Source of the DNA: a virus
Lineage: Duplodnaviria; Caudoviricetes
DNA length: 64,000 nt
IMG/VR virus record: IMGVR_UViG_3300037424_000564
Coordinates: 32,001-96,000 of that record
Reading direction: 5' to 3' (one strand)
Part shown: in pieces, positions 19,259 through 45,450 of the stretch
How the letters are laid out: each line of letters opens with the position of its first letter
Numbering within the stretch: the first letter of the stretch is position 1
The notes under the pieces: model-generated
Seen by the model: only the letters and a program-made list of their open reading frames with translations
Database searches by the model: none
Told to the model about the DNA's origin: nothing
Position numbers and translations under genes: made by a program

Positions 19259-19320
19259 AAAAATCTCCTATAAATGTTTCTTATAGTTATTTATAAAAAG
19301 CCCATCAGTTTATTCGGACT

Positions 19321-19407
19321 TGAGCCGGAAGAGGGATTCGAACCCCCGATGTAGTTTCCATACCTGATTACAAGTCAGGTGCAATCGACCAACTATGCGA
19401 TTCCGGC
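19321..19407 (-). tRNA. tRNA-Thr(UGU) with long variable region
   Basis: GCCGGAA/UUCCGGC acceptor, CCUGA-CUUGUAA-UCAGG, ~15-nt variable region, GGUUCGAAUCC T-arm. Confidence 0.85.
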
Positions 19408-19972
19408 ATTTTAAGGATTTGAACAAATATGTTGTTCTCTCATTGATTCTGTATCTAATATATTAGACCTCGTAGAATTCCTTTTACAACAGCAACGAGT
19501 TTTATTTAAATAATTTATCCCATTCATCTACTATTTTTTGCATTTTTTCTTCCTGATAATCCCAAAAACCAATAAATTCAGCTTCTTCAAATAATCGATT
19601 ACCTTCTGTCATAAATGGTTCTTCTGCATATAAAATCTTACATGGATCGACACTACATCCTTTATTAAGGACAAGGATATCACCCTCACTAAAAAAATCT
19701 TTCCAACAATTAATAGCGCACTCAATTACTTGTGATTCTGAATCAAATCGTTCAGTTTCATCACCCTCACGATAAAAACCACGCTCTTTAAACTTGTTTA
19801 ATTTTGCAGCACTTTCTTTATCTAGAACACGATTTAATGTAATCTTTTCAAGATCATTGTTAGAAAATAGTTGCAAATATCCATAATAATGAATAGCACC
19901 GGGACAAATACCAGCATAGCTTGAAGTTTCTAAACTAACTATTTTTGATGACATTTCGATAGTCCTTTAACT

Positions 19973-20052
19973 TAGCGGGGATAGTAGGAGTTGAACCTAC
20001 ATGTGTCCAATTACACTTTCAAGTGGGTAGAAGCCACAGGTGATATATCCCC
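19973..20052 (-). tRNA. Atypical tRNA-Arg(UCU)-like RNA lacking a normally placed D-arm
   Basis: GGGGAUA/UAUCCCC acceptor, GUGG-CUUCUAC-CCAC, AAUUGGA 3' of the anticodon arm, GUAGG-UUCAACU-CCUAC T-arm. Confidence 0.6.
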
Positions 20053-20067
20053 AAATTATTAATTTTT

Positions 20068-20152
20068 TGGTAGGGAAGGAGGGGATCGAACCCTCACCCA
20101 ATTAAGGACAGGATTTTGAGTCCTGCGCGTCTGCCAGTTCCGCCACTTCCCC
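20068..20152 (-). tRNA. tRNA-Leu(CAA)
   Basis: CAGGA-CUCAAAA-UCCUG, class II variable arm, ACCA end. Confidence 0.95.
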
Positions 20153-20199
20153 ATGAAAACTGGTCTTTTTAAGGTATGACCAAACCTATCAAGGCTGTG

Positions 20200-20343
20200 T
20201 TAGCCTTGACCAACACTTAGTTTCTTGCCACGTTTTTTATCTCTTTTCTTACGAATTTTAGTATTGGTTGATTTACCAATAGAAGTAACTTTAGTTGATT
20301 TCCGTTTGACTTGCTTAGTCGCATCTGATGCTTTAACTGCCAT
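20200..20343 (-). CDS. 47-aa highly basic microprotein
   Basis: MAVKASDATKQVKRKSTKVTSIGKSTNTKIRKKRDKKRGKKLSVGQG; AAGGAG SD upstream. Confidence 0.65.
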   Translation of the reverse strand: MAVKASDATKQVKRKSTKVTSIGKSTNTKIRKKRDKKRGKKLSVGQG

Positions 20344-20383
20344 TGTATAACTCCTTTGGTTGTTTGTCAATTTAATTAAAAAT

Positions 20384-20477
20384 TGGTACTCCGTGAGGGA
20401 CTTGAACCCCCATCATGCGATAATCTGTCGCCAAGCCTGTGTATAAAACAGGTGCTTTGCCATTAAGCTAACGGAGC
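20384..20477 (-). tRNA. tRNA-Ile(UAU) with long variable arm
   Basis: CCUGU-UUUAUAC-ACAGG, ~24-nt variable region, ACCA end. Confidence 0.8.
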
Positions 20478-20485
20478 ATGATCTT

Positions 20486-20570
20486 TGGTAGGGAAGGAGG
20501 GACTCGAACCCTCAAGCAATTAAGCGACGGATTTTAAGTCCGTTGTGAATACCAATTCCACCACAACCCC
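20486..20570 (-). tRNA. tRNA-Leu(UAA)
   Basis: ACGGA-CUUAAAA-UCCGU, variable arm, ACCA end. Confidence 0.95.
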
Positions 20571-20576
20571 ATGTTA

Positions 20577-20903
20577 TTACCTTGAATGTGGTGGATGCAG
20601 ACCAGTAGCAGATCGTGCCAGATCAACTAGATCTTTTGCTTCCTTAAGTCTAAAAGAAAAATTTGAACTAAGTTCTTTGATACAAGGAATCGGCGCATTC
20701 CCTTCTTTCAGAAGACGAACAGCAAGAACATAAGCTTCTTGATCTTCGCTTTTAACACCATCAGGAAGACGATATTCGGATACTTGTGAATCAGCGAAAT
20801 ATGCACAGAAACATGCCGGATCTTCTTTAGCGAGACGAATAGCAATTTTCTTGTAATCAACTGCAACATCACCAGTAAGGATATCGATAGCTTTTTTGTA
20901 CAT
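20577..20903 (-). CDS. Protein with ribosomal L7/L12 C-terminal-like motif
   Basis: IPCIKELSSNFSFRLKEAKDLVD resembles the L7/L12 IKxVR...LKEAKDLVE helix pair. Confidence 0.5.
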   Translation of the reverse strand: MYKKAIDILTGDVAVDYKKIAIRLAKEDPACFCAYFADSQVSEYRLPDGVKSEDQEAYVLAVRLLKEGNAPIPCIKELSSNFSFRLKEAKDLVDLARSATGLHPPHSR

Positions 20904-20970
20904 TATGAACCTCCGTTAGTTAGTTATAAGACATTGTAAACTAAGTTTACTTTTTTGTCAATTTAATTTG

Positions 20971-21043
20971 TGCGGAATGTAGGGATCGAACCTACTTATC
21001 AAGATCTTCAATCTCGCGCATTGACCACAATTGCTTATTCCGC
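20971..21043 (-). tRNA. tRNA-Phe(GAA)
   Basis: GCGGAAU/AUUCCGC, CGAGA-UUGAAGA-UCUUG. Confidence 0.9.
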
Positions 21044-21231
21044 AGATATTAACCTTCTACCATATAGATGAAATGTTTGATTGAGTTACAACGTTCACAC
21101 ATACCACGTTTAGCATAACCAATATTCATCATTGTTTCTAATTCTTTATGACATTCTAAACACAACCAAGTACCAGTATGAATTGTCGGATTCTTTACAG
21201 TATCTAGCATTTTTAGTTCCTTAGTTAAATT

Positions 21232-21315
21232 TGGCAGACGCAGGGGGAGTCGAACCCACAACACAAGTTTTGGAGACTTGCCTAACTCGCCCGGTTAGAT
21301 GAAGTTCCTGCATCT
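21232..21315 (-). tRNA. tRNA-Trp(CCA) with enlarged D region
   Basis: AGAUGCA/UGCGUCU, CAAGU-CUCCAAA-ACUUG, GCCA end. Confidence 0.75.
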
Positions 21316-21320
21316 ATTTT

Positions 21321-21391
21321 TGGTAGTTTACCTTGGAATTGAACCAAGCTATATTTCGATATGAGCGAAACATGATCCCAGATCGTAAACC
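21321..21391 (-). tRNA. tRNA-Met(CAU)-like with reduced D-arm
   Basis: GGUUUAC/GUAAACU, UUUCG-CUCAUAU-CGAAA, ACCA end. Confidence 0.7.
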
Positions 21392-21400
21392 GTGATACTT

Positions 21401-21572
21401 CGGGCCAGTAGAAGGATTCGAACCTCCAAAGATCATTAGAATACAACCGCCAGATACGTCTATCTACTTTATGCATTCCCGATCCAACTGTAGCCTTTCA
21501 TATACTTTCAGTCATGACTCCTGCCATATATGAACACTTTCTGTCTGCGTCTTCCAATTCCGCCATACTCGC
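21401..21572 (-). ncRNA. tRNA-framed RNA with a ~110-nt structured insert replacing the anticodon arm
   Basis: GCGAGUA...GGCGGAAUUGGAAGACGC Leu-like 5' half and GGAGG-UUCGAAU-CCUUC T-arm; inner helices UUCAUAUA/UAUAUGAA and GAAUGCA/UGUAUUC. Confidence 0.6.
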
Positions 21573-21928
21573 CATGTTTGTATTTAAATAATTCTACTAT
21601 ACTTTTTTATTCTTGTCAATATTTCTTTGCAACAAATTTGATTATCGTCAAAAGATGATTCTATCCTAATTAAGATTCTTTCGTATGTCCAACCAACTGA
21701 AATTCCGGTCAAATAAAATTCATACCAATCAATAACCATATCATTATTATAAATTGAATTCACTATTAAGTCAAGTGGTATTCCTAACGAATCCGACATT
21801 TTAAAAGCATCAAACCCAGAAATAACCATTTTATCTTCAGTAGTTATTCCTACAGATCTTAAACCGTAACATTTTTTCCATTTGCGTTTAGCTGTTTCAT
21901 TTGTACCTCGCCTATTCTATTAAATATT

Positions 21929-22002
21929 TGGAGCTAACATTCGGAATCAAACCGAAATCCAGACTGTACCAGAGTCTTATTCTATCATTGAACTATGCCA
22001 GC
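21929..22002 (-). tRNA. tRNA-Thr(GGU), degenerate D/T loops
   Basis: AGACU-CUGGUAC-AGUCU; T-loop UUUGAUU; D-loop lacks GG. Confidence 0.7.
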
Positions 22003-22003
22003 A

Positions 22004-22092
22004 TTGCGGAGAGTGAGGGATTTGAACCCCCAGATGTTTTACCACCGGACTGTTTAGCAAACAGCGTCCCTACCAGATTAGGCCAACTCTCC
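22004..22092 (-). tRNA. tRNA-Ser(GCU)
   Basis: GGAGAGU/ACUCUCC-G, loop UUGCUAA, long variable arm. Confidence 0.92.
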
Positions 22093-22336
22093 AAATGTTC
22101 TAATTCCTACTTGATTCCCTATATCCCAAGCATAATACATTTCATAATCGTTAAAGAAATTATAAGGATTTTCGACTAAACTTTTCAATCCTGCTTGGTA
22201 TCCATCATTATATTCTTGTGTTAGATCTAGTCTAACTGCTTTCCCTTTTGGAACACCGGGATATTTCCTACTCATTATTTTAATTCCTTTAGTATAAATA
22301 GGCTCGATTTGCTGATAGATTATCTTCACACCTATT

Positions 22337-22480
22337 TTGCCAAGGGAGTTGGATTCGAACCAACATTCTTCTTATTACTTGATATTACCCTCTCTTATCT
22401 AAAATCAGTGATATCAACTCTGATTTGTCCATTGAGCAATAATACCTTTCATAAGGTGCTTTCCAGTCAGCTATCCCCCG
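22337..22480 (-). ncRNA. tRNA-framed RNA with large central insert (no anticodon arm)
   Basis: CGGGGGA/UCCCUUG acceptor-like stem, AGCUGACUGGAAAGCA D-arm, GUUGG-UUCGAAU-CCAAC T-arm, inner AAUCAG/CUGAUU helix. Confidence 0.55.
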
Positions 22481-22499
22481 AAAGTTAATCTATTATATT

Positions 22500-22582
22500 T
22501 GGTAGCTCTGGGGAGACTCGAACTCCCAATCCTTTCGGCAACTGCTTCTAAGACAGTCATGTATACATTCCAACACAGAGCC
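22500..22582 (-). tRNA. tRNA-Leu(UAG)
   Basis: ACUGU-CUUAGAA-GCAGU, variable arm, ACCA end. Confidence 0.92.
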
Positions 22583-22589
22583 ATGTTAA

Positions 22590-22736
22590 TTAAAAATTTT
22601 TAATCTGTTTAAAATATCCACGATATAGACGTTTCATGCTTGCAGGATGAACAGTTTTACTACATCTATCACATGCTTTAGTTTTACTAGTAATTCTTCC
22701 ACATACAACACAAAAACATTTAGAATGTGATTTCAT
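22590..22736 (-). CDS. 48-aa Cys-rich microprotein
   Basis: MKSHSKCFCVVCGRITSKTKACDRCSK...; AGGAGG SD upstream. Confidence 0.55.
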   Translation of the reverse strand: MKSHSKCFCVVCGRITSKTKACDRCSKTVHPASMKRLYRGYFKQIKNF

Positions 22737-22745
22737 TAAACCTCC

Positions 22746-22821
22746 TAGTGTGACGTGTCGGTATTGATCCGACTAACAACTGATTCACAGTCAGTCTGCT
22801 CACTTTTTGCACTACGTCACC
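22746..22821 (-). tRNA. tRNA-His(GUG)
   Basis: G-1 plus GUGACGU/ACGUCAC, ACUGA-CUGUGAA-UCAGU; unusual T-loop AUCAAUA. Confidence 0.8.
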
Positions 22822-23061
22822 ACAACTGTAGTAAATAGTCTCAGGTCGCTACATCGTCTCATACATATTAGTTAATTTAAATTTCATGCCTGAAAGATAA
22901 TTAGAAAAAAATAAGTGCGTACTTTAATGCCCCTCAATGAACTATAATTAGTATCTCATTCTCCGTGATCAGTTAGAGCGATACCTGTTAATTCAGGTCA
23001 ACTGGTGCGCTGTCTTGTATATATGATAAATCATATCACATCTTTAGCGTTTGAGATTATA

Positions 23062-23196
23062 AGAGCCGATAGTCGGAGTCGAACCAACGCTTGTCTTATC
23101 AATGATTTCTTAGATTTAACTAGTCATCTAAAAGCTATCTAAAGACATTATAACAGGATTTTGCAGTCCCTGCTCTAGCCACTGAGCTATACCGGC
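23062..23196 (-). tRNA. tRNA-Cys(GCA)-like with ~65-nt structured variable-region insert
   Basis: GCCGGUA/UAUCGGC-U, canonical D-arm, CUGCAAA loop, insert closed by UGUCUU/AAGACA. Confidence 0.65.
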
Positions 23197-23205
23197 AATA
23201 TTTTT

Positions 23206-23323
23206 AGCTTTTGATTGTAATCGAACCAATCTATACAAAACCTCAAGGTGACTAGTCTTGATTCAAGCCTTTAGTTGTCAACTACCTGCATTTAGTTTTG
23301 TATAAAATCCATCTTTAAAAGCT
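23206..23323 (-). ncRNA. Acceptor plus T-arm RNA with a long central helix (resembles the tRNA-like domain of tmRNA)
   Basis: AGCUUUU/AAAAGCU, unpaired GGAUU segment, UAUACAAAAC/GUUUUGUAUA 10-bp helix, GAUUG-GUUCGAUUA-CAAUC. Confidence 0.6.
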
Positions 23324-23401
23324 TGAGCAGAATGGGAGAATCGAACTCCTAATTGTCAGCTTGGAAGGCTGATGTTGCTACCTTACAACTTATCATTCTG
23401 C
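23323..23401 (-). tRNA. tRNA-Gly(UCC)
   Basis: GCAGAAU/AUUCUGC-U, UCAGC-CUUCCAA-GCUGA. Confidence 0.9.
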
Positions 23402-23404
23402 ATT

Positions 23405-23557
23405 GCGGTAGATATGTCAGGTCTACCTTCCTTATTCCAGAGTCGCGTCATGGAAAACCAGAGGACTATTTAAGTTTTCGTATCCTTTAAGACCAGTTGC
23501 CAATTCTGGTCAGGATACTTATTTACCTTAGACGAAAGGTGGTTAATAGTCAAACCT
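23405..23557 (-). ncRNA. Multi-hairpin structured RNA candidate
   Basis: GACUAUU/AAUAGUC, GUAUCCU/AGGAUAC, GACCAG/CUGGUC, UUCCA/UGGAA and GGUAGA/UCUACC helices. Confidence 0.55.
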
Positions 23558-23581
23558 TTAACATAAAATCATTTATTATAA

Positions 23582-23668
23582 TGGTGGGTGTGGAGGGATT
23601 CGAACCCACGCTGGCGTAAACGCCTCCTGATTAAAAGTCAGGTATATTACCACTATATTTACACACCC
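23582..23668 (-). tRNA. tRNA-Lys(UUU) with class II-like variable arm
   Basis: CCUGA-CUUUUAA-UCAGG, GGCG-UUUA-CGCC arm, ACCA end. Confidence 0.85.
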
Positions 23669-23674
23669 CAAAAA

Positions 23675-23750
23675 GGGTGGATGCGGTGAGGTTCGAACTC
23701 ACGGCGTATCGGTTAAAAGCCGATTACTCTACCAACTGAGTTACGCATCC
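23675..23750 (-). tRNA. tRNA-Lys(UUU), canonical size
   Basis: GGAUGCG/CGCAUCC, AUCGG-CUUUUAA-CCGAU. Confidence 0.92.
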
Positions 23751-23760
23751 ATAATATTAA

Positions 23761-23835
23761 GTCATTTTCGTGACTACATACTATGAATGCATGTAGTCAC
23801 GAAAATGACTACATACTATGAATGCATGTAGTCAC
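23761..23835. repeat. 19-bp perfect inverted repeat plus 30-bp tandem repeat
   Basis: gtcattttcgtgactacat / atgtagtcacgaaaatgac; tgactacatactatgaatgcatgtagtcac at 23771 and 23806. Confidence 0.9.
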
Positions 23836-24145
23836 TATTGTTTATATTTTTTCATAATTTCATCATATTCCTTTTCTTCTTTGCTTTTAATTGAAAGGTT
23901 AGCTGCATTATCTAAGGTACAAGCAACAATAACAACCAACGTTGCCTCCCATGAAATAAAAAACCCAATGATAAGACAAATAATACCAATAAACCATAGA
24001 ATGCTACTTTTAATCATTTCAGTATCCTTTTTATTGTTTGGTAGCTCCTGCCGGTTACGATCCGACTGCTTCATCTTATCAGGATGATGTGTTACCATTA
24101 TACCAAGGAGCTATGTTTTATATAAGACACTTTAACATCTTTATT

Positions 24146-24499
24146 CTAGTCTGTCAATTTATAAATCATGACATAAACTTTTAAACCTTTTTTAGTTGCA
24201 TAATCAATCATACCTTTTGTCCCGGCAGACTTTCCGTCCCAAATAGCAATGAGCGCATCTGCATAGTCTACCATTTCTCTATTTCGGATATGACCAGCGG
24301 CTTTACCTTTACCATCCCAATCAGGAATAAAAAACTTTATAGAAATATGATTCTTTTCTGCAAACTCTTTACCTAGTCTATCTACCCCTCTAGCACCACC
24401 ACAAACAACTTCAGTTATAACAAATCTAGCTTCTTTAACAGCTTTGAGTATTAGATTATAGTCCGTTATATCTCTACTACCTGCGATGATTACTTTCAT
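24146..24499 (-). CDS. SLOG family protein (DUF2493/YspA-like)
   Basis: VIIAGSRD, VVCGGARGVD, AAGHIRNREM, WDGKSAGTKGM. Confidence 0.85.
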   Translation of the reverse strand: MKVIIAGSRDITDYNLILKAVKEARFVITEVVCGGARGVDRLGKEFAEKNHISIKFFIPDWDGKGKAAGHIRNREMVDYADALIAIWDGKSAGTKGMIDYATKKGLKVYVMIYKLTD

Positions 24500-25044
24500 T
24501 CTTTTCCTTTGAGATTACCTCTTCAAAAAACCCATGACAAGTTTGATTATTTCTCAAATGAGGAACAGGAAATCTCATTTTATCATTATTTTTCGTATTG
24601 AAGTTTCTTCTTAATTTAATTACAGTTCCGCATATTTTACAAATATATATCATCTTAGCATCATCTTATATACCTTTGATATATAATCTTCCATTCCTAA
24701 ATCTTTTAAAACAATACCTTCATTGATATATCGTTCAACTAATTCTGCTTCTATAGGATACCATTTACCTTGTTTGATATACCATCGTGTTCTACCTGAT
24801 GGATAAGTTCTACATTCTACCTTTTCAAGATACGAATTAATCGTGACATATTTTTCTATTTGAGTCATGGTGTCCTTTCGGGATCGAACCGTTGCAATTA
24901 TATTATTATAGCTATACACCCCGTATTAGCATTAAATATAATCTCTTGTCCATCATCTACTCTACCATTACTTAACATGTATTTCATGATATTTCAACTT
25001 TGCCCAAGTATCACATAGGAGTTGAACCTATGAGGGACATAATA

Positions 25045-25121
25045 TGGTGGGGCTTATCAGACGCTACCCTGATCCTTGTCCCTGATGTACGGTCAGGTTG
25101 TGCTACTTACACCATCACCCC
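25045..25121 (-). pseudogene. Non-canonical tRNA-like gene, GUA loop
   Basis: GGGG/CCCC-ACCA end, CCUGA-CCGUACA-UCAGG (no U33), T-arm replaced by AUCAG/CUGAU hairpin. Confidence 0.45.
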
Positions 25122-25133
25122 ATATTTGTTATA

Positions 25134-25212
25134 TTGAGATTGCAAAGGGAGTCGAACCCTTTATTCGAAGTTTTGCAGACTAAGCCCATTACCACAATGA
25201 GGAAATGCAATC
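25134..25212 (-). tRNA. tRNA-Cys(GCA)
   Basis: GAUUGCA/UGCAAUC-U, CUGCAAA loop, weak anticodon stem. Confidence 0.75.
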
Positions 25213-25235
25213 ATTTTTTTGTTCTAGATATTTTG

Positions 25236-25763
25236 TTATCTCTGAGAGGACCAGTCAGATGAACCACTGTCGATACAGACTAATGTATTGCAATAGTGTT
25301 CTTCTACATGACATCTACAACATAATGGAACACAATTTTGAATCTCTTTTAATATTCTATCCCAAGACCATCCTCTTAGGTTTTTAAATTTACTGTCTTT
25401 CTTTGTTGGGTCTACATGATGTAAATCAATAGCTCCATAATACTTATCATACCCACATTTAATACATTTTCCACCTAAATATTCAATAGCTTTTTTACGT
25501 TTTTCATTACCAACTTTTATTGTATATTTGTTGTGACATTTCGAACAAAATGATCGTTTTTTCCCATAAAATTTATCTGGATTTGTTTCACCACAAATGC
25601 ATTTATGTGTTATATTTCTAGGTGAAATTTCTATCTGTTTAGTATTATGTTCCCCATAAGGAGAGCATTCCAAACAATATTTTCTTGTATTAATTATTTT
25701 AATCTTCCCATCAATATTAACTCTATTTGGGAATTCTTTATTACATTTAGTACAGATTGGCAT
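25236..25763 (-). CDS. HNH homing endonuclease inside the tRNA cluster
   Basis: CIKCGY, IDLHHVDP, CVPLCCRCHVEEH; TATAAATA upstream. Confidence 0.85.
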   Translation of the reverse strand: MPICTKCNKEFPNRVNIDGKIKIINTRKYCLECSPYGEHNTKQIEISPRNITHKCICGETNPDKFYGKKRSFCSKCHNKYTIKVGNEKRKKAIEYLGGKCIKCGYDKYYGAIDLHHVDPTKKDSKFKNLRGWSWDRILKEIQNCVPLCCRCHVEEHYCNTLVCIDSGSSDWSSQR

Positions 25764-25843
25764 AACAGCATCCTTTGTAAGATAGATACTATTATTTATA
25801 AAAAATTTATCTTACATTCTCATAATATTATCCTTAGTTGAAT

Positions 25844-25919
25844 TGGCGGGGGATGAAAGAATCGAACTTTCGTCTTCTGGGTCAAAGCCAGATATGTTAC
25901 CACTACAATACAATCCCCT
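25844..25919 (-). tRNA. tRNA-Gln(UUG)
   Basis: UCUGG-CUUUGAC-CCAGA, GCCA end. Confidence 0.9.
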
Positions 25920-25920
25920 A

Positions 25921-25995
25921 TGGTCGGTGAGGCAGGGATCGAACCTGCATGATCTACGCCCCAAACGTAGTGGTCAGCCATTGACCCACTCACCG
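25921..25995 (-). tRNA. tRNA-Pro(UGG)
   Basis: CGGUGAG/CUCACCG, CUACG-UUUGGGG-CGUAG, ACCA end. Confidence 0.92.
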
Positions 25996-26018
25996 AATTA
26001 CTAATTAACTTTACCATA

Positions 26019-26094
26019 TTGTCGCGGAAGCAGGATTCGAACCTGCGACCTCTTGGTTATGAGCCAAGCAAGATAGCCTCTTCTCTATTCCGCA
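26019..26094 (-). tRNA. tRNA-Met(CAU), initiator-like
   Basis: U1-G72 weak first pair, AUAGAG D-stem like fMet, CUUGG-CUCAUAA-CCAAG. Confidence 0.8.
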
Positions 26095-26269
26095 ATAATT
26101 TTAAATAATTCTTTATTGAGTCTATCTTTTTGAACCCTTCGTACACTTCTTGAAATTAATTTTCTTTCTTTCCCATGATAGACATTACAACAGTAACATT
26201 TAAGTCCACCAATTCCACAACGAGAATTCATTTCTTGCCTAAAAATATCAGACATTATAATCTCCTATT

Positions 26270-26347
26270 TGGCACTCCTGATCGGGATCGAACCGACAAT
26301 TTTTGCCTTGAAAGGGCAACGACTTTAACCAATTTGTCTACAGGAGC
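26270..26347 (-). tRNA. tRNA-Glu(UUC) copy 1
   Basis: UUGCC-CUUUCAA-GGCAA, GCCA end. Confidence 0.92.
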
Positions 26348-26388
26348 ATGTTTAGGGATAGAATAATTGAGGGATTGAACCTCATATT

Positions 26389-26466
26389 TGGCACTCCTGA
26401 TCGGGATCGAACCGACAATTTTTGCCTTGAAAGGGCAACGACTTTAACCAATTTGTCTACAGGAGC
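26389..26466 (-). tRNA. tRNA-Glu(UUC) copy 2 (identical)
   Basis: Exact duplicate at +119 bp. Confidence 0.9.
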
Positions 26467-26477
26467 ATGTTTAGGGA

Positions 26478-26621
26478 TAGAATAATTGAGGGATTGAACC
26501 TCATATTTCGAACCATCAATATAAAGACCCATTTTCTTTATACACAAAGGGAATCGAACCCTTACTTGATACGACCAGTATTTAATAGGAATTGAACCTA
26601 ACTACTCACCAAGTTATTCTA
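26478..26621 (-). ncRNA. RNA with three T-loop hairpins
   Basis: UAGAAUAA/UUAUUCUA closing stem; UAGG-UUCAAUU-CCUA, AAGGG-UUCGAUU-CCCUU, UGAGG-UUCAAUC-CCUCA. Confidence 0.6.
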
Positions 26622-26696
26622 TGCGCCCTAGACGGGGATCGAACCCGCTACTTTCTGCTCGACAGGCAGACTCCACTACCAAATGGACTCTAAGGC
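26622..26696 (-). tRNA. tRNA-Asp(GUC)
   Basis: UCUGC-CUGUCGA-GCAGA, G73. Confidence 0.88.
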
Positions 26697-26709
26697 ATTA
26701 TTAAATTAT

Positions 26710-26799
26710 TGGCTCCAGTGACAGGCTTCGAACCTGTAAGTTCCTTGCGAGAACGCTTGATTAACAGTCAAGTGGGTTTGCCAATTCTCCTACACTGGA
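26710..26799 (-). tRNA. tRNA-Asn(GUU) with class II-like variable arm
   Basis: UCCAGUG/CACUGGA-GCCA, CUUGA-CUGUUAA-UCAAG, GUUC...GAAC arm. Confidence 0.85.
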
Positions 26800-26812
26800 A
26801 TGATATTAATTT

Positions 26813-26887
26813 TGGCTCCGAGAGCAGGGATCGAACCTGCGACAGGGTGGGTAACAGCCACCTACTCTACCACTGAGTTACCTCGGA
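26813..26887 (-). tRNA. tRNA-Asn(GUU), canonical size
   Basis: GGUGG-CUGUUAC-CCACC, GCCA end. Confidence 0.92.
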
Positions 26888-27037
26888 ATGTTATGCTACC
26901 GATTTACATTAGGCTGATAAAGTGAAATAATCATTTCCTAACTATCTTGTAGCGATGGAAATTCTATCACAATGAATAAGCAGTCTCACATGGAGTTAAA
27001 GTATTCAATTGTGACTTAAGATTGTAGCCGTATTCTT

Positions 27038-27106
27038 TGGTGGAGCGACTAGGACTTGAACCTAGAATTGATGGGTTACAGCCATGCGTGATACCAATTT
27101 CACTCC
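27038..27106 (-). pseudogene. Shortened tRNA-Tyr(GUA)-like gene
   Basis: AUGG-CUGUAAC-CCAU, normal T-arm and ACCA, but the acceptor 5' strand and D-stem share the same GUGA. Confidence 0.5.
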
Positions 27107-27112
27107 AAAATT

Positions 27113-27194
27113 TGGTGGGTATGGTAGGACTCGAACCTACATGCTTTCGCTACGGTGTTACAGACCGCTGGACCACCAATTGTCCAACATACCC
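27113..27194 (-). tRNA. tRNA-Tyr(GUA)
   Basis: GCGGU-CUGUAAC-ACCGU, short variable arm, ACCA end. Confidence 0.92.
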
Positions 27195-27199
27195 AAAGT

Positions 27200-27640
27200 A
27201 TGGAGACTAGTTATCGGACTAATCTTTATCCACATTTACTGATCCGATTCAGACTTAAGTTTATATTATTGTTAGACTACACACAGATCATTGTCCAGAG
27301 TTAATAGGCTCCTTCCTCCCTGATATCATCTTCAAATATAATTCAAAAGATTTAAGTTTTCGGGCATACCCAAGGTACTTATTACCTTAAAACTGAAGTA
27401 TAGCAAATAGGTAAATCTAAAATCTAACAACAATGGCTTTGACAGGGAGTTAGTTCCCTCCGGTAGGTATCATGTTGCAAATCATCGAATAGCCACTATT
27501 CATCGAATGATATTGAGAGTTTATTATTGGGATTGGGAAACTCTCTCTTTTACGCAACTGCTTAATAAGCATGGACCCAATTTTGATGTAAGATATTTTA
27601 ATATCTCTTGGAGGGCTTTTCATCCTCGTCGTTATCTTAC
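27200..27640 (-). ncRNA. Large structured non-coding RNA candidate
   Basis: No ORF in track; TTGACA-17-TAATCT promoter at about 27648-27680; helices GAUGUAAGAUA/UAUCUUACAUC, GAGAGUUU/AAACUCUC, AGGGA/UCCCU, UUGUUAGA/UCUAACAA. Confidence 0.55.
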
Positions 27641-27685
27641 ATCTTGTAATAAGATTACTACTTAATCATTTGGTTGTCAATTTAA

Positions 27686-27967
27686 ATCTTCAAGTTTTCA
27701 GGCATACCCAAGGGACTTGATACCTTGTATCTGAGAATTGAGAATTTTGATTTCAGGTGGTTATTCCAAGGACGTCTCCATTCTAATTAGCATTAGAACT
27801 TCACAGACTCACCACTATCCTATACATCCATCAAAACTTATCACTTTTGAAATTATAAACCGTGTCGTAATCTTTTCAGACCCAACAACCATACCTCAAT
27901 AAATAATGGCTGGCTTATAATTCTAGTCAAGCTACTCAATTTTTTCAAATAACTCGTTCAACATTGA
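27686..27967 (-). ncRNA. Structured non-coding RNA candidate
   Basis: Own sigma70-type promoter; AAUUGAG/CUCAAUU, UUAUAAGCC/GGUUUAUAA, UUUUGAU/AUCAAAA, UUCUAAU/AUUAGAA helices. Confidence 0.55.
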
Positions 27968-28402
27968 AATAATCTTACTACTTAACCATTTGATTGTCAA
28001 TTTAATTCCAAAATAAATTAATTAAGTTAGAGTTCACATCACACACCTTCCTTTCACAAAAGTAGGAGTTATTGATTTTTGATTTTCTCTATCGTAACAT
28101 GATGATTTTACTTTGTCAATTTATTTGTATAAACAGATAGTCATTGATTGCATTTAAACTAAACTCTGCAAAGTTAGATCGCACCTACCTATCGTCAAGC
28201 CTTATTGTCGCCCCCTCTGGTTATCGTCAGGCTCTATTGTCGTATACATCTATCCACTTCTATTGAGTGGGTTTTATTTCTGATTGCAGTCAGAAGGCAC
28301 TTCAATCAATGACTTTCTGTTTATACAAATAAATTGTCTTGTCAAATAACTCGTTCAACATTGAAATAATCTTACTACTTAACCATTTGATTGTCAATTT
28401 AA
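27945..28402 (-). repeat. Two ~60-bp identical promoter cassettes (27945-28005, 28342-28402)
   Basis: tcaaataactcgttcaacattgaaataatcttactacttaaccatttgattgtcaattta repeated; TTGACA-17-TAAGAT on the minus strand. Confidence 0.9.
28117..28336 (-). ncRNA. RNA closed by a 34-bp near-perfect helix, with internal tandem repeats
   Basis: Arms 28117-28150 and 28303-28336 with one mismatch; 21-nt repeats at 28190 and 28222. Confidence 0.65.
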
Positions 28403-28411
28403 ATTTTGATA

Positions 28412-28490
28412 TGCGCCCCGAGTAGGACTTGAACCTACATGTATCCAATTAACCTTTCAATCGGTTCGTAGCCGAAGGGTATACCGAGAC
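28412..28490 (-). tRNA. Atypical tRNA-Arg(ACG)-like RNA lacking a normally placed D-arm
   Basis: UCGG-CUACGAA-CCGA, UUGAAAG..UAAUUGGAUACAU then GUAGG-UUCAAGU-CCUAC; same layout as 19973-20052. Confidence 0.6.
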
Positions 28491-28501
28491 AATAAACTAG
28501 T

Positions 28502-28590
28502 TTGCAGCGAGTGAAGGCATCGAACCATTGACGCTATTAACGTCACCACTGTTTTCAAGACAGCTTGGGGAGCCAACCCCGGCACTCGCC
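28502..28590 (-). tRNA. tRNA-Ser(UGA) with 8/4 acceptor/T-stem fold
   Basis: GGCGAGUG/CACUCGCU 8-bp acceptor, GGGG/CCCC D-stem, CUUGAAA loop, UGACG/CGUCA arm, 4-bp T-stem. Confidence 0.75.
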
Positions 28591-28734
28591 ATTGATTAAA
28601 CTTTACTACATCTTTATTCAGTTGTCAAATTAAATATAGTAATTTCAACCCTAGAAGGACTTTCGTTAAACACTGCTAAAGCATTTTAAGTGTTAGTTGA
28701 AATCTTTACTGTCCATTAACTATATTATTGCTGT

Positions 28735-28808
28735 TTGTAGCTCTTAACAGAATCGAACTGTTGTTTATGGTATGTAAAACCACCACTCTACCATTGAGTT
28801 AAAGAGCT
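28735..28808 (-). tRNA. tRNA-Val(UAC)
   Basis: AGCUCUU/AAGAGCU, GUGGU-UUUACAU-ACCAU. Confidence 0.85.
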
Positions 28809-28815
28809 ATATTAC

Positions 28816-28888
28816 TTGTGGAGATAGGCGGAATCGAACCCCCTGCTGAGATTTGCAAGACCTCTGCCCTTTACCAAAACATACCCCC
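28816..28888 (-). tRNA. tRNA-Ala(UGC), short D-arm
   Basis: G3:U70 pair, GAGGU-CUUGCAA-AUCUC. Confidence 0.8.
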
Positions 28889-29401
28889 AAAACTAAAAAA
28901 CCCTTGTCACATAAGCAACAAGGGTGATAAATCTAACTATCCCTGTTACCGTTTACATTGTATCCCCACCAAATGCCCAAATAAGATATGAGCGCACATC
29001 AGCTTTAAAGGATGCAGTCATAGCACTCTCTAAATTGACTTTATTAATTGTGGGTTGATTTATATTCATATATATTTTTCCGTGTAAATTGGTTATCTTT
29101 ATTTATAAAAGATAAATTTTATCTATTCATGAAATAGCGTAACTAGTTGAAATAGTTATTTAAATTATTGATTTTTTCTATTCATTATAATCGATGCAAT
29201 ATAACTCACCAGTACCATGTAAATATTTTTGTAATGCTACAATTAACCCAAAACTTTCATTTTCTAGCTCACCATATATAACAGAACAATTTATTTCAGC
29301 CATAACTTTGTTGCATCGTTCATGTAACTTTAATGCTTCTTTTTGTCGTTCTTCTGGTTTGTTAGTTAAATAGTTGAATTCCATATTATCCTTAATTAAG
29401 A

Positions 29402-41791: not shown

Positions 41792-43138
41792 TTATTTAAT
41801 TTTGTTTTTTAGTTCCTTAAGATCATTTAGCCACATATCTTCCAATGAAGTTTCTGTGATAATTTTAAGTTCTTCTTTTTTGTTGGATATTTGTTTCTTT
41901 AATTCATCAATTGTGTCAGATGAAAAACTATGGATTGGCATTCTCAATAGATAATCAAATGAATCATCTACTTTATAAAAAGGGAAATCTTTATTATCTT
42001 CAATCTGTTTTATGATAATTGATTTGCTTGTTTTAAATACTTTAATCTTTTCTTCAAGAATAAACTTGACAAAATAAAATTTACTTCCAATTACCATTAA
42101 TTCTTTTTTTACTTTTTCAATTAAATGTATTTTACGCAGATCATAATAATGCAATCTAACTTCCATGTACTTATCTAGTATTTCTTTAATACTATCAAAT
42201 TCAACAATTTCATTATTAATACCAATACATGTATAGTTTTCTGTGATCTTACGTACTAATTTTAATTTATCAATAATATATTCATCATCTTTTTTTGTAA
42301 ATTCTCTAGGAACTTTAATTTCGAACAGAAATTTATTTTGTTTTGGTTCTGACATATCAGTATAGTCAGCTATAACTTTATCTTCTTCTAATTTGGTTAG
42401 TATATCATTATATTTTTTAAGATTATATCCAACAGGAAGTTCGGTAACTAAAATAGTTGTAGTATTTTTAATTTCATATGTACCAAAAATTTCAAATGTA
42501 TTTGGACTAGTCTGTAAGATTCTACCCTTAAAGCCATTAAAATAAGGCAACAGAATTTTAGGAGTCTGTCTCCTACCTTTGCCAGAGATTTTATCAACTA
42601 AAGTTTCTATAATTTCTAAAGGATTTCGAGATAGAATCTTTTGGCTGAACCCTGTTCCGATACCTTCAGATCCATTGACAAGTATAATAGGTATAATAGG
42701 AACATAATACTTAGGTTCAATACGCTTACCTTCAAATTCTTGTTCAATCAAAATAGCTTCATCTTCAGGATGGAAAATGGATTCAAACATTTTTTCTTTT
42801 GTCACGTAGATATATCTAGATGAACCTGCTTCTGGAATACACACAGATCCAAAGTTACCTTTTGGTTCAATTAGATTAATATTATTTGTACCTACGAAAC
42901 TTTGAGCCATTCCTGTAATTACATCTTCAAGAGACTTTTGCCCATGAAGATATTCGAGCATATCAGTAACTCTAGCTGCTAATGATGCTACTTTTGTTTT
43001 TTCTTTGAGAGTATTTGCTGAACATAATGCTTTGCGAGAAGATGGTTTCTGTCCATCCATAAAATTACCAAGTCCACGAAAGGCAGAATAGGTAGCAAAA
43101 GCACTAAAATCATCACGGAAGAAATGTTTTATTTTCAT
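41792..43138 (-). CDS. gp52: Type II topoisomerase medium subunit (T4 gp52/GyrA-like)
   Basis: DGQKPSSRK, YLHGQKSL, AGSSRY catalytic RY, LVNGSEGIGTGF. Confidence 0.93.
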   Translation of the reverse strand: MKIKHFFRDDFSAFATYSAFRGLGNFMDGQKPSSRKALCSANTLKEKTKVASLAARVTDMLEYLHGQKSLEDVITGMAQSFVGTNNINLIEPKGNFGSVCIPEAGSSRYIYVTKEKMFESIFHPEDEAILIEQEFEGKRIEPKYYVPIIPIILVNGSEGIGTGFSQKILSRNPLEIIETLVDKISGKGRRQTPKILLPYFNGFKGRILQTSPNTFEIFGTYEIKNTTTILVTELPVGYNLKKYNDILTKLEEDKVIADYTDMSEPKQNKFLFEIKVPREFTKKDDEYIIDKLKLVRKITENYTCIGINNEIVEFDSIKEILDKYMEVRLHYYDLRKIHLIEKVKKELMVIGSKFYFVKFILEEKIKVFKTSKSIIIKQIEDNKDFPFYKVDDSFDYLLRMPIHSFSSDTIDELKKQISNKKEELKIITETSLEDMWLNDLKELKNKIK

Positions 43139-43147
43139 TTATTATCC

Positions 43148-44326
43148 TTAAAGTGTGTTGATATTAAATTCAATACCACGCATTTGTTCTTTTCTAAAGT
43201 CAACTGCTTTAGAGTGCATCCAATTATATATAACTTCATCATCACCTTCTTCATATTCAAAATCTTGAATAAAGTGATCAATTCCATATGTAGTAATCAA
43301 TTTACTTAGATCACTAGCTTCCCATGTCGCCAATCCTTTATAATAAGTATATTTTAATCCTGCTTTTTTATTAGTATTATAATCAGTTAAAGTAAAATAG
43401 AAATCTTTAATATTTCCAGATTTATCAAAACCAGCAACAATTGGTGTTCGAAGGAATTTAATTTTATTAGCTTTCAGTAATGATTTCCCATATTTGAAGA
43501 AAAATACCAACAATAATCCACGAATCGCCATACCATCCAAATCTTGGTCTGATGCTATCAAAACATATTGATAGTTTAACTCAGTTTGGATATCTTTGTC
43601 AAGTCGCATGTTCAAAATTTGAGAAATGTTTCGAATTTCATCATTAGATTTGAGTTTGTCAATCTTAACTTCCAATACATTTAATGGTTTACCTTTGAGA
43701 GGAAAGAAAGAAAATGTATCCCTTCCAAGCACACTCATAAGACCATTATTTGCAGAATCACCTTCTGTGAGAACGAGATATTTTTTTTCCTTAATAGCAG
43801 GATAATATTTCTCAACTCTCATTTTCTTTTTTTGTTGATTTAATTTCCGTAGCTCGACATTCTCCTTAGTTTGTAGTTTCAATTTATATGATTCTACAAT
43901 AGGAAGAATGATTTCATCGTTTTTAATAATTGATTTCAAAAGAGTTTCGTTGATCAGATCATCAATTAACTCTTTGAAATTATTAGATGAAATCAATCTC
44001 TCTTTAGTTTGACTGTCAAACTGAGGATTACTCATTCGAATTGAAAGTAAAAGAAATATTTTAGATTTAATATCAATAGGCTTTACTTCGAGTTTATGTT
44101 TCTTTTTCAAGAATACTCTAATATATTCAACGATTTTGGCCACTGCGTACTCGACATGAGTACCACCACGAATAGTATAAGCACCATTGACAAAACTCAT
44201 TTGCTGAAATTCTGTATCTGAATAAAACAAAGCAACACGACCATTATTAATCTCATTTGATTCATAGATAGGGTAAATCTTCTCAACAAAACCTTTCAGT
44301 TTCGGAACTGCTATTTTAGTGTACAT
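43148..44326 (-). CDS. Type II topoisomerase large subunit, transducer plus TOPRIM part
   Basis: GGTHV, FDSQTKE, LTEGDSA, FPLKGKPLN, ASDQDLDG, YKGL. Confidence 0.93.
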   Translation of the reverse strand: MYTKIAVPKLKGFVEKIYPIYESNEINNGRVALFYSDTEFQQMSFVNGAYTIRGGTHVEYAVAKIVEYIRVFLKKKHKLEVKPIDIKSKIFLLLSIRMSNPQFDSQTKERLISSNNFKELIDDLINETLLKSIIKNDEIILPIVESYKLKLQTKENVELRKLNQQKKKMRVEKYYPAIKEKKYLVLTEGDSANNGLMSVLGRDTFSFFPLKGKPLNVLEVKIDKLKSNDEIRNISQILNMRLDKDIQTELNYQYVLIASDQDLDGMAIRGLLLVFFFKYGKSLLKANKIKFLRTPIVAGFDKSGNIKDFYFTLTDYNTNKKAGLKYTYYKGLATWEASDLSKLITTYGIDHFIQDFEYEEGDDEVIYNWMHSKAVDFRKEQMRGIEFNINTL

Positions 44327-45450
44327 TAATTTTTCCTTAATAAATTTAATATATTTTTAACATCGATAAGTGATGATATTCTTATTAATTTAATATTATT
44401 TTCATTACAAAATTTTGTTTTTATCTTATCACGTTTTTTTACTAATTCAAAACTTTTTAAGGCATTATCAGTATTAGAATATATAACAGGCTTGAAATGA
44501 TGAATACCATCATATTCAATACATATATTATATTCTGGTAGATAAAAATCAAATGGTAATGGTAAAATATTTCTACATTCTTTAAATCTCTTTTGTTCTT
44601 CAAATATTAAATTATTTTTTAATAAAATTTCACGTATTAAAGTTTCACCTACTGACTTATTATTTACTGGATAACACTTATTGCATATTCTATTATTAAT
44701 TATTTGTTCTGGTGTTTTAATATATATTTTTTTACATTTTAAACATTCTATTTCAATTTTTGTAAATGTATCAACATATTTTGTTTTTAAATTAAAATTT
44801 TCAACATCAACTAATTTAACAAAATCAAAATGAGACTTTCTTTTGGAACATACTTTACATCTAATGTGGGTATCAATGTGGTATTTAAAAGTCTGTTTAA
44901 ATTCAACACCACAAATATTACATTTTATTATTGAAGGGGAATTAGAATTTTTATAGTCAAATTTAGAATAATCATAAATATTTCCAAATTTATTAATAGC
45001 AAGATTTGTCATTTCATCAAATGATAAATTACCATATTTACTATCATTTCGTAATGAACATATTGGACACCCATGACCTTGTAAATGTAAATTAGGTGTT
45101 CTATTAAATTCGCTAAAACATTTTAAACATTTTATACTAATTTTAATATTTGCGCTTTTATATTCCTCCAAATATTCAAATGATTCTATACCATATATAT
45201 TTTCTGTTTCAGCAATAAAATCAATATGAGATTTTCTCTGATTATTTGATCTTTTTTCTATATTACATAGAGAGCAAATACTTCCTCTTATGTGATCATT
45301 AGGTATTTGTTTAAATATTCCGTGTTTTTTACATTTTATTTGTACTTTCGTTTGTGAGTTTACATATTCAACAAAGGAATAATCATACATGTTTTTATGT
45401 ACTGTATTTGATTTTTGAATAAATTCATCTGTATTTAATTTTCTTCCCAT
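44326..45450 (-). mobile_element. Free-standing endonuclease gene (Zn-ribbon repeats plus C-terminal PD-(D/E)XK-like domain) splitting the topoisomerase gene
   Basis: Repeated YDYS..Y.....K..I.C..HG/C modules; LPFDFYL...IEYDGIHHF. Confidence 0.8.

Follow-up and report, generated by a model that had tools for sequence, protein, structure and literature searches.

A repeated short RNA module in the spacers of a phage transfer RNA array and its comparison with described small RNAs

The species 1 and 2 RNAs of phage T4 and the 3'ETS-leuZ RNA of Escherichia coli are non-tRNA RNAs that are co-transcribed with transfer RNAs (tRNAs) and freed by precursor processing. The tRNA arrays of large phages hold unexplained non-coding RNAs, and the punctuation and maturation of their long precursors are poorly known. 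Among small folded RNAs of other kinds, the preQ1-I riboswitch folds as an H-type pseudoknot whose second loop (L2) contains a ligand-pairing C; it has an A-rich tail and is found in the 5' untranslated region (UTR) of queuosine-related genes. Theta ribozymes occur next to phage tRNAs, with a cleavage site within about 5 nucleotides (nt) of the tRNA, and a C-to-U change at the catalytic position inactivates ribozymes like that of hepatitis delta virus (HDV) (PMC10879173). T4-type phages also contain promoter-early stem-loop (PeSL) cassettes, in which a stem-loop lies just upstream of a promoter (PMC4122927, PMC2839356); these stem-loops are terminators, and the cassette then continues with a Shine-Dalgarno (SD) sequence and an open reading frame (ORF) (PMC2839356, PMC4122927). 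Here we describe a short RNA module that occurs three times within a tRNA array on the minus strand of IMG/VR virus record IMGVR_UViG_3300037424_000564. The window analyzed is a 64-kb stretch (bases 32,001-96,000 of the 205,056-bp record; G+C 30.5%), and all positions below refer to it.

A composite pattern built from the module has exactly three matches, and none other, in the 205,056-bp genome when scanned by regular expression. All three lie on the minus strand, from which the tRNAs are transcribed, and occupy spacers devoid of ORFs in a 4.3-kb part of the tRNA/small-RNA array; the strings on which the original prediction was based are all present where it had placed them. Approximately 20 invariant bases are common to all copies and form collinear blocks around an insert, which is 8 nt long in copies 2 and 3 and a 30-nt hairpin in copy 1. 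The blocks provide the strands of two proposed helices of 5-6 base pairs (bp), S1 (YAAGGU with ACCUUG) and S2 (YAAGU with ACUUR), and the variable insert and an invariant YGAAA strand are found between the helix strands. Invariant strands around an insert of changing length are what a variable hairpin within a conserved RNA fold usually looks like.

With one additional co-varying base included, copy 1 runs from 23530 to 23468 (63 nt) and sits in the spacer of 180 nt that separates tRNA-Lys from tRNA-Gly. Its 5' part consists of the first S1 strand (S1a, UAAGGU, 23530-23525), a linker (L1, AAA, 23524-23522), the first S2 strand (S2a, UAAGU, 23521-23517) and an imperfect second S1 strand (S1b, AUCCUG, 23516-23511), followed by the 30-nt hairpin insert (23510-23481), CGAAA (23480-23476), the second S2 strand (S2b, ACUUA, 23475-23471) and the tail AAU. 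Copy 2 (27389-27350, 40 nt), located 155 nt upstream of tRNA-Tyr, reads S1a UAAGGU (27389-27384), L1 AA, S2a UAAGU (27381-27377), S1b ACCUUG (27376-27371), the insert GGUAUGCC (27370-27363), CGAAA (27362-27358), S2b ACUUA (27357-27353) and the tail AAU. Copy 3 (27727-27688, 40 nt) reads S1a CAAGGU (27727-27722), L1 AU, S2a CAAGU (27719-27715), S1b CCCUUG (27714-27709), the insert GGUAUGCC, UGAAA (27700-27696), S2b ACUUG (27695-27691) and the tail AAG. There are 7 differences between copies 2 and 3 over their 40 positions, and copy 1 has only the two flanking blocks in common with them; a MAFFT alignment puts the 3' block of copy 1 out of register. Measured to the closest tRNA, the modules lie at distances of 51, 66, and 155 nt or more.

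Chance does not account for the three-copy repeat. The similarity exceeds that of dinucleotide shuffles, with the 13-nt 3' block common to copies 1 and 2 being reached in 6 of 1000 shuffles even when the collinear 5' block is left uncounted. A less strict descriptor based on structure (AGGU, any 5-bp stem, GAAA) gave 18 matches elsewhere and 6-25 in Markov shuffles, which is background level. The 3' block of copy 1 is in a different reading frame from that of copies 2 and 3, and what is conserved is therefore the nucleotide and not the protein sequence. A coding reading, in which copies 2 and 3 are open as K-V-x-S-x-L-G-M-P-E-N-L, was rejected for this reason and also because none of the copies is covered by an ORF with a credible start. 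Nearby there is a single sizeable ORF (27450-27623; 57 amino acids), which lies inside a promoter-driven unit, has a GAGG box abutting its ATG and a 2-nt deletion in a related strain (run X3), and is very probably no gene.

The original prediction had drawn attention to a change from UAAGU/ACUUA to CAAGU/ACUUG in the third copy, and this is borne out: the pairing of S2 is kept through a double change. A further position co-varies with it. The base preceding AAGG is U, U and C in the three copies, matching the base preceding AAGU, and the 5' half is therefore a direct repeat, YAAGGU ... YAAGU. The changes in copy 3 are thus concerted (U, U, A to C, C, G), with S2 kept and the U.G pair at the end of S1 becoming C-G. 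When 7 random substitutions were simulated on copy 2, the compensatory double change in S2 arose in 1.4% of trials, falling to 0.017% when the base before AAGG was also required to match. As for S1, every copy has an exact ACCUU or CCUUG partner of AAGGU no more than 25 nt away, and in copy 1 it is found on the other side. At background, such partners occur at a rate of 6-14%; 6% of the AAGGU sites in the genome have an exact one within this distance, and the rate is 6.3% for a partner of the kind that lies upstream of copy 1. In copies 2 and 3 this partner (ACCUUG or CCCUUG) directly follows S2a, while in copy 1 an ACCUU six bases upstream of the module (23536-23540, minus strand) is the perfect complement of AAGGU in S1a and pairs in the minimum free energy (MFE) hairpin.

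The strand order of copies 2 and 3 (S1a, L1 of 2 nt, S2a, S1b, L3, S2b) would correspond to an H-type pseudoknot, with YGAAA at the junction end of L3. For copy 1, it is possible that the two helices form with a different wiring, the perfect S1 partner lying upstream and the helix being closed on the other side. The downstream AUCCUG of this copy pairs better with AGGAU of the long hairpin, and the insert itself is a strong hairpin (81-nt segment fold, z = -3.25). There is also a nested alternative, in which S2 closes a small GGG/CCY hairpin, and this appears in the MFE of both long transcripts. S2 is present in the MFE folds of the 454-nt (copy 2) and 280-nt (copy 3) transcripts, and its pair probability in copy 2 with flanks is 0.5-0.9. 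The modeled thermodynamics leave the choice between pseudoknot and nested fold undecided.

On these grounds, the evidence tips slightly in favor of the module being a selected RNA structure. The more specific reading, that one small cis-acting RNA structure within tRNA/small-RNA precursors exists here as three paralogous copies, is plausible but we would give it somewhat less than an even chance. Several observations weigh against it. The covariation amounts to one event and not a family-wide signal, because a single genome supplied all three sequences, two of which (copies 2 and 3) are tandem paralogs. S1 in copy 1, if formed with the downstream strand, contains an A.C mismatch and two wobbles, and S2 in the same copy has a pair probability of ~0, because the bulge is free to migrate and the GU of S2a can instead be drawn into the long hairpin. 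The folding z-scores are weak, both for copies 2 and 3 (-1.5 and -0.1) and for the whole transcripts (-0.9 and -1.2). No homolog was detected in IMG/VR (three pattern scans, the first covering the matches listed), fetched metagenome loci, Genome Taxonomy Database (GTDB) genomes or cultured phages. In one low-depth contig of a related strain, module 3 and the adjacent -35 box are replaced by 23 other bases, and copy 3 may therefore be dispensable. A point in favor is that modules 1 and 2 are unchanged in strains roughly 95-99% identical to the phage from two further sediment runs, but it carries little weight because the strains are so close (~97-99% identity).

The searches for relatives covered several collections. 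A comparison by nhmmer of the three host elements and the modules with ~3 Mb of fetched loci gave no real match, and the scan of JGI metagenomes gave no module homolog. The IMG/VR pattern matches that were looked at closely (L065, L053 and L207/L208) are in coding sequence or otherwise unrelated. The scan of GTDB genomes returned 71 loci, of which ~35 are a chance-fitting hairpin of gut Bacilli and the rest mostly single unrelated matches. This near-identical intergenic hairpin is found in metagenome-assembled genomes of gut "uncultured Bacilli"/Mollicutes (L330:3886-4050 and ~35 other GTDB loci, L293-L356) and has a 13-bp stem (AAGGUAWUAAGUU / AACUUAAUACCUU) and a 15-nt loop, with a U-run next on the gene strand. 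It was rejected as a homolog, being a nested terminator-like hairpin between two genes on the other strand, and looks like a strongly conserved terminator or the end of a mobile element. The best relatives of the array-internal YspA-like gene are 66-77% identical and lie in unrelated gene contexts (IMG/VR, JGI metagenomes, a 5.8-billion-protein set and contigs), with one 77% relative having a gene-free 1.3-kb flank. For the sister-phage anchors deoxynucleoside monophosphate kinase, topoisomerase and ASCH protein, relatives are <40% identical or absent. The covariation basis is limited to three copies because the phage is without close relatives in these collections, and the motif appears to be confined to this genome and near-identical strains.

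Three sediment DNA sequencing runs contain the stretch or parts of it, with no RNA run among those listed, and contigs from these runs are invariant within modules 1 and 2. The related strain in run X2 has a contig that skips 75 nt (27036-27110) holding a weak tRNA-like match (27041-27106), and this pseudo-tRNA is therefore polymorphic between strains. In the strains of runs X2 and X3, 3 nt are absent at 27406 (27404-27415 region), upstream of module 2. If this deletion has been read correctly, it creates ACCUUG upstream of the module and places TTTACC exactly 17 nt before TAAGGT; the result would be a second S1 partner or a promoter-like spacing.

The main rival to an RNA-level reading is that the module is a DNA-level leftover of duplicated regulatory cassettes, a carried-along stem-loop or flank without an RNA function of its own, which we consider unlikely, though it has about a quarter share of our expectation. 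In this view the region would expand as early-promoter units are duplicated and recombined, in the manner of the PeSL cassettes of T4-type phages. Several ORF-free stretches of the array are driven by near-consensus early promoters (ttaaaTTGACA, 17 nt, TAnnnT). The early-type sigma-70 promoter of the copy 2 unit (27652-27680, minus strand; TTGACA, 17 nt, TAATCT; repeat family D7) has copy 3 directly upstream, ending 7 nt before its -35 box, and this is the layout of PeSL cassettes, a stem-loop right upstream of a sigma-70-like early promoter (PMC4122927). The promoter of the copy 3 unit (27972-28000, minus strand; TTGACA, 17 nt, TAAGAT) is of the same early type. Copies 2 and 3 begin ~255 and ~240 nt downstream of these tandem promoters at 27680 and 28000, respectively, in two units (U3 and U4) that are tandem paralogs. 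Alignment of these units is confined to their promoters (64%) and modules (80% over 51 nt) and fails in the interior, a point that favors the RNA-level reading. A 59-nt promoter-plus-leader is also duplicated nearby without a mismatch (27945-28003 and 28342-28400). The units carrying it differ outside the duplicated 59 nt, which suggests that promoter cassettes have recently been duplicated or have undergone gene conversion. A related strain has rearranged joints at these repeats and one contig without module 3. Furthermore, S1a of copy 1 serves also as the -10 box of a promoter-like string (23525-23553, minus strand; TTGACT, 17 nt, TAAGGT), a string that is atypical for this phage in having TTGACT for TTGACA and a displaced A-tract.

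However, among ~8 promoters in the module region and 64 strings genome-wide that fit the promoter pattern, only one has the module upstream, and no promoter lies downstream of copies 1 and 2, where the PeSL layout is absent. PeSL stem-loops are terminators, whereas no U-run follows any copy of the module, the terminator scan made no call and there is no downstream ORF. Neutral relics would not be expected to hold 20 bases around a replaced insert, nor to undergo concerted pair-preserving changes. This rival thus draws support from the position of copy 3 and the strain polymorphism, and is weakened by the pair-preserving changes and the promoterless sequence downstream of copies 1 and 2.

A tRNA-derived origin was also weighed, in which the S1 hairpin would be a decayed T-arm left by array rearrangements, perhaps a partial tRNA mimic. 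In copy 2, S1 has the size of a T-arm, its stem being 5 bp and its loop 7 nt long, and in copy 3 a 17-mer lies 4 edits from the phage T-arm AAGGGUUCGAYUCCCUU, a proximity matched by only 6 of 1500 background hairpins (0.4%). The resemblance of copy 3 is also seen in repeat family D12, and the array holds other degenerate tRNA pieces. Copies 2 and 1, however, are at background distance (7 and 9 edits, respectively), the T-loop signature UUCRA is absent, there is no conserved acceptor partner, and both the tRNA covariance model and ARAGORN find nothing in the modules. We therefore rate this origin as improbable; if real, it would bear on where the hairpin came from and not on what it does.

The module also has no counterpart among catalogued RNA families. 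Scans with Rfam at gathering thresholds returned only tRNAs across the 64-kb window, and permissive scans (E up to 10) of 23380-23600 and 27180-28750 returned only noise over the modules, namely models of small nucleolar RNAs, long non-coding RNAs and a Staphylococcus aureus small RNA. The pistol, twister, twister-sister and hatchet ribozymes, the large phage RNAs GOLLD and ROOL, and riboswitch classes all gave no covariance-model match, and the comparison with phage RNAs such as GOLLD and ROOL that had been suggested at the outset therefore yielded nothing. Readings as a K-turn, a CRISPR-repeat mimic, a late promoter or an anticodon-loop mimic were dropped by eye, as their defining bases are missing.

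The catalytic core that the original prediction offered as one option fares poorly. A pseudoknot with a conserved CGAAA strand beside a helix does recall J4/2 and P2 of HDV-like ribozymes, and theta ribozymes are known beside phage tRNAs (PMC10879173). Such ribozymes are built as a nested double pseudoknot of P1, P1.1, P2 and P3, with P4 optional. Yet in copies 2 and 3 the 15 nt that separate S2a from GAAA leave no room for P3, L3, P1 and P1.1, and an HDV-like P1 partner was not found in copy 1. At the first position of J4/2, copies 1 and 2 have the would-be catalytic C, in place of which copy 3 has U; no copy is within 5 nt of a tRNA end, the hammerhead box CUGANGA is absent in or beside every copy, and no ribozyme family matched even in the permissive scans of the short stretches. 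A self-cleaving core is consequently very improbable. The proposed loop-E motif, a sarcin-ricin type of protein-binding internal loop with AGUA opposite GAA, is even less credible. Copies 1 and 2 do carry its letters on opposing strands, but copy 3 reads AGUC, AGU is already consumed by helix S2, the register of the motif leaves its flanking bases unpaired (A opposite A), and copy 1 has three bases (UAC) between the inner helix and GAA. Equally remote is a small ligand-sensing pseudoknot of the preQ1-I or SAM-II class. S1 of 5-6 bp, L1 of 2-3 nt, S2 drawn from loop bases and an A-rich run before the 3' strand do give the preQ1-I topology; however, no Rfam riboswitch matched (including RF00522), L2 of the module is only 0-1 nt long where preQ1-I holds its ligand-pairing C, and there is no downstream ORF or ribosome-binding site that could be under control. 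Overall, the module appears from its sequence to be neither a ribozyme nor a riboswitch.

What remains is a candidate structural element whose role may be considered in the context of the precursors. The module would be transcribed within phage tRNA and small-RNA precursors, where its blocks would form S1 and S2 with a 2-3-nt linker between them and an unpaired YGAAA strand running into S2. Copies 2 and 3 may fold as a compact H-type pseudoknot, and copy 1 may keep both helices with a long-hairpin insert and a different wiring. More speculatively, the module could act as a recognition mark in a long precursor: an RNase of the host or the phage might cut next to it, it might shield an RNA end, or a protein might bind it. 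Conservation of sequence beyond the needs of pairing suggests recognition by a protein or nuclease, which is why a mark for processing, stability or binding is favored among functions; even so, a processing or stability role is a tentative proposal that is more likely wrong than right. A bolder and distinctly improbable extension, made by analogy, is that the two helices and YGAAA represent a compact RNA core of a kind not described before, whose strands can be rewired (a pseudoknot in copies 2 and 3, a hairpin plus helix in copy 1) as in permuted ribozyme types. It would be a specific recognition or cleavage signal that punctuates the non-tRNA RNAs of the array, being a new small self-cleaving RNA or else the site bound by a dedicated phage RNA-binding protein.

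The description of the module as belonging to a family of paralogous phage non-coding RNAs is therefore to be split: the recurrence of a sense-strand module in three ORF-free elements stands, but "family" is too strong for a motif seen only in this genome and near-identical strains, in which two of the three copies arose when promoter units were duplicated in tandem. The repeat is real and uncatalogued but narrow, a modest, lineage-specific curiosity whose wider importance is unproven with three copies in one uncultured phage lineage. Nonetheless, a short conserved fold recurring in array spacers would be a concrete handle on precursor maturation that is small enough for direct tests.

With regard to the genomic setting, the source phage, which is uncultured and from sediment, appears from its genes for a baseplate wedge, a split topoisomerase II and an RNA ligase to be a distant T4-like myovirus; its topoisomerase is <40% identical to any cultured phage counterpart. 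The minus-strand array contains ~26 tRNA genes (19,300-29,000), between which are found small ORFs, an HNH gene, a YspA/SLOG gene and ORF-free stretches. Within it, a tandem duplication of 119 nt (26259-26496; perfect to 98%) carries tRNA-Glu(UUC) and a T-arm-like fragment. At 28505-28591, the Rfam tRNA-Sec model scores 38 bits, below threshold, and ARAGORN made no call; the sequence is that of a long-arm tRNA-like gene with UGA and not UCA in the anticodon loop, and is probably an unusual tRNA-Ser. Outside the array, the two topoisomerase II genes (43148-44326 and 41792-43138) are immediately preceded by a gene for a 374-amino-acid HNH-type homing endonuclease (44326-45450), which shares one base with the start of the first of them.

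Returning to the described systems, the module resembles HDV-like and theta ribozymes (PMC10879173) in that it is small and putatively pseudoknotted, lies within the tRNA cluster of a phage and has a C-G-A-A strand that runs into a closing helix. Unlike them, it is without P1, P1.1 and P3, has U for the key C in copy 3, does not adjoin a tRNA end and matches no covariance model. The likeness to PeSL cassettes lies in a repeated short stem-loop before a sigma-70-type early promoter of a T4-like phage, in a plastic, duplication-prone region with insertions and deletions between close strains. The differences are that a promoter abuts only one of the three module copies, that a U-rich tail and a downstream SD sequence or ORF are absent, that most promoters of the phage are without the module, and that its stems are conserved in sequence with a possible pseudoknot. 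The T4 species 1 and 2 RNAs and 3'ETS-leuZ, compared here by description only, are single-copy, whereas the phage module is repeated. The H-type pseudoknots with an A-rich loop 3 (preQ1-I, RF00522; the luteovirus frameshift element; the operator of T-even gene 32) differ from the module in that it has no Rfam match, lies outside a 5' UTR or coding frame, has no ligand-binding residues, carries an insert in L3 and is wired differently in copy 1. With these same knots, however, the module shares the strand order S1a-L1-S2a-S1b-L3-S2b, a short L1, an L2 of none or one base and, at the 3' end of L3, adenines near the helix junction.

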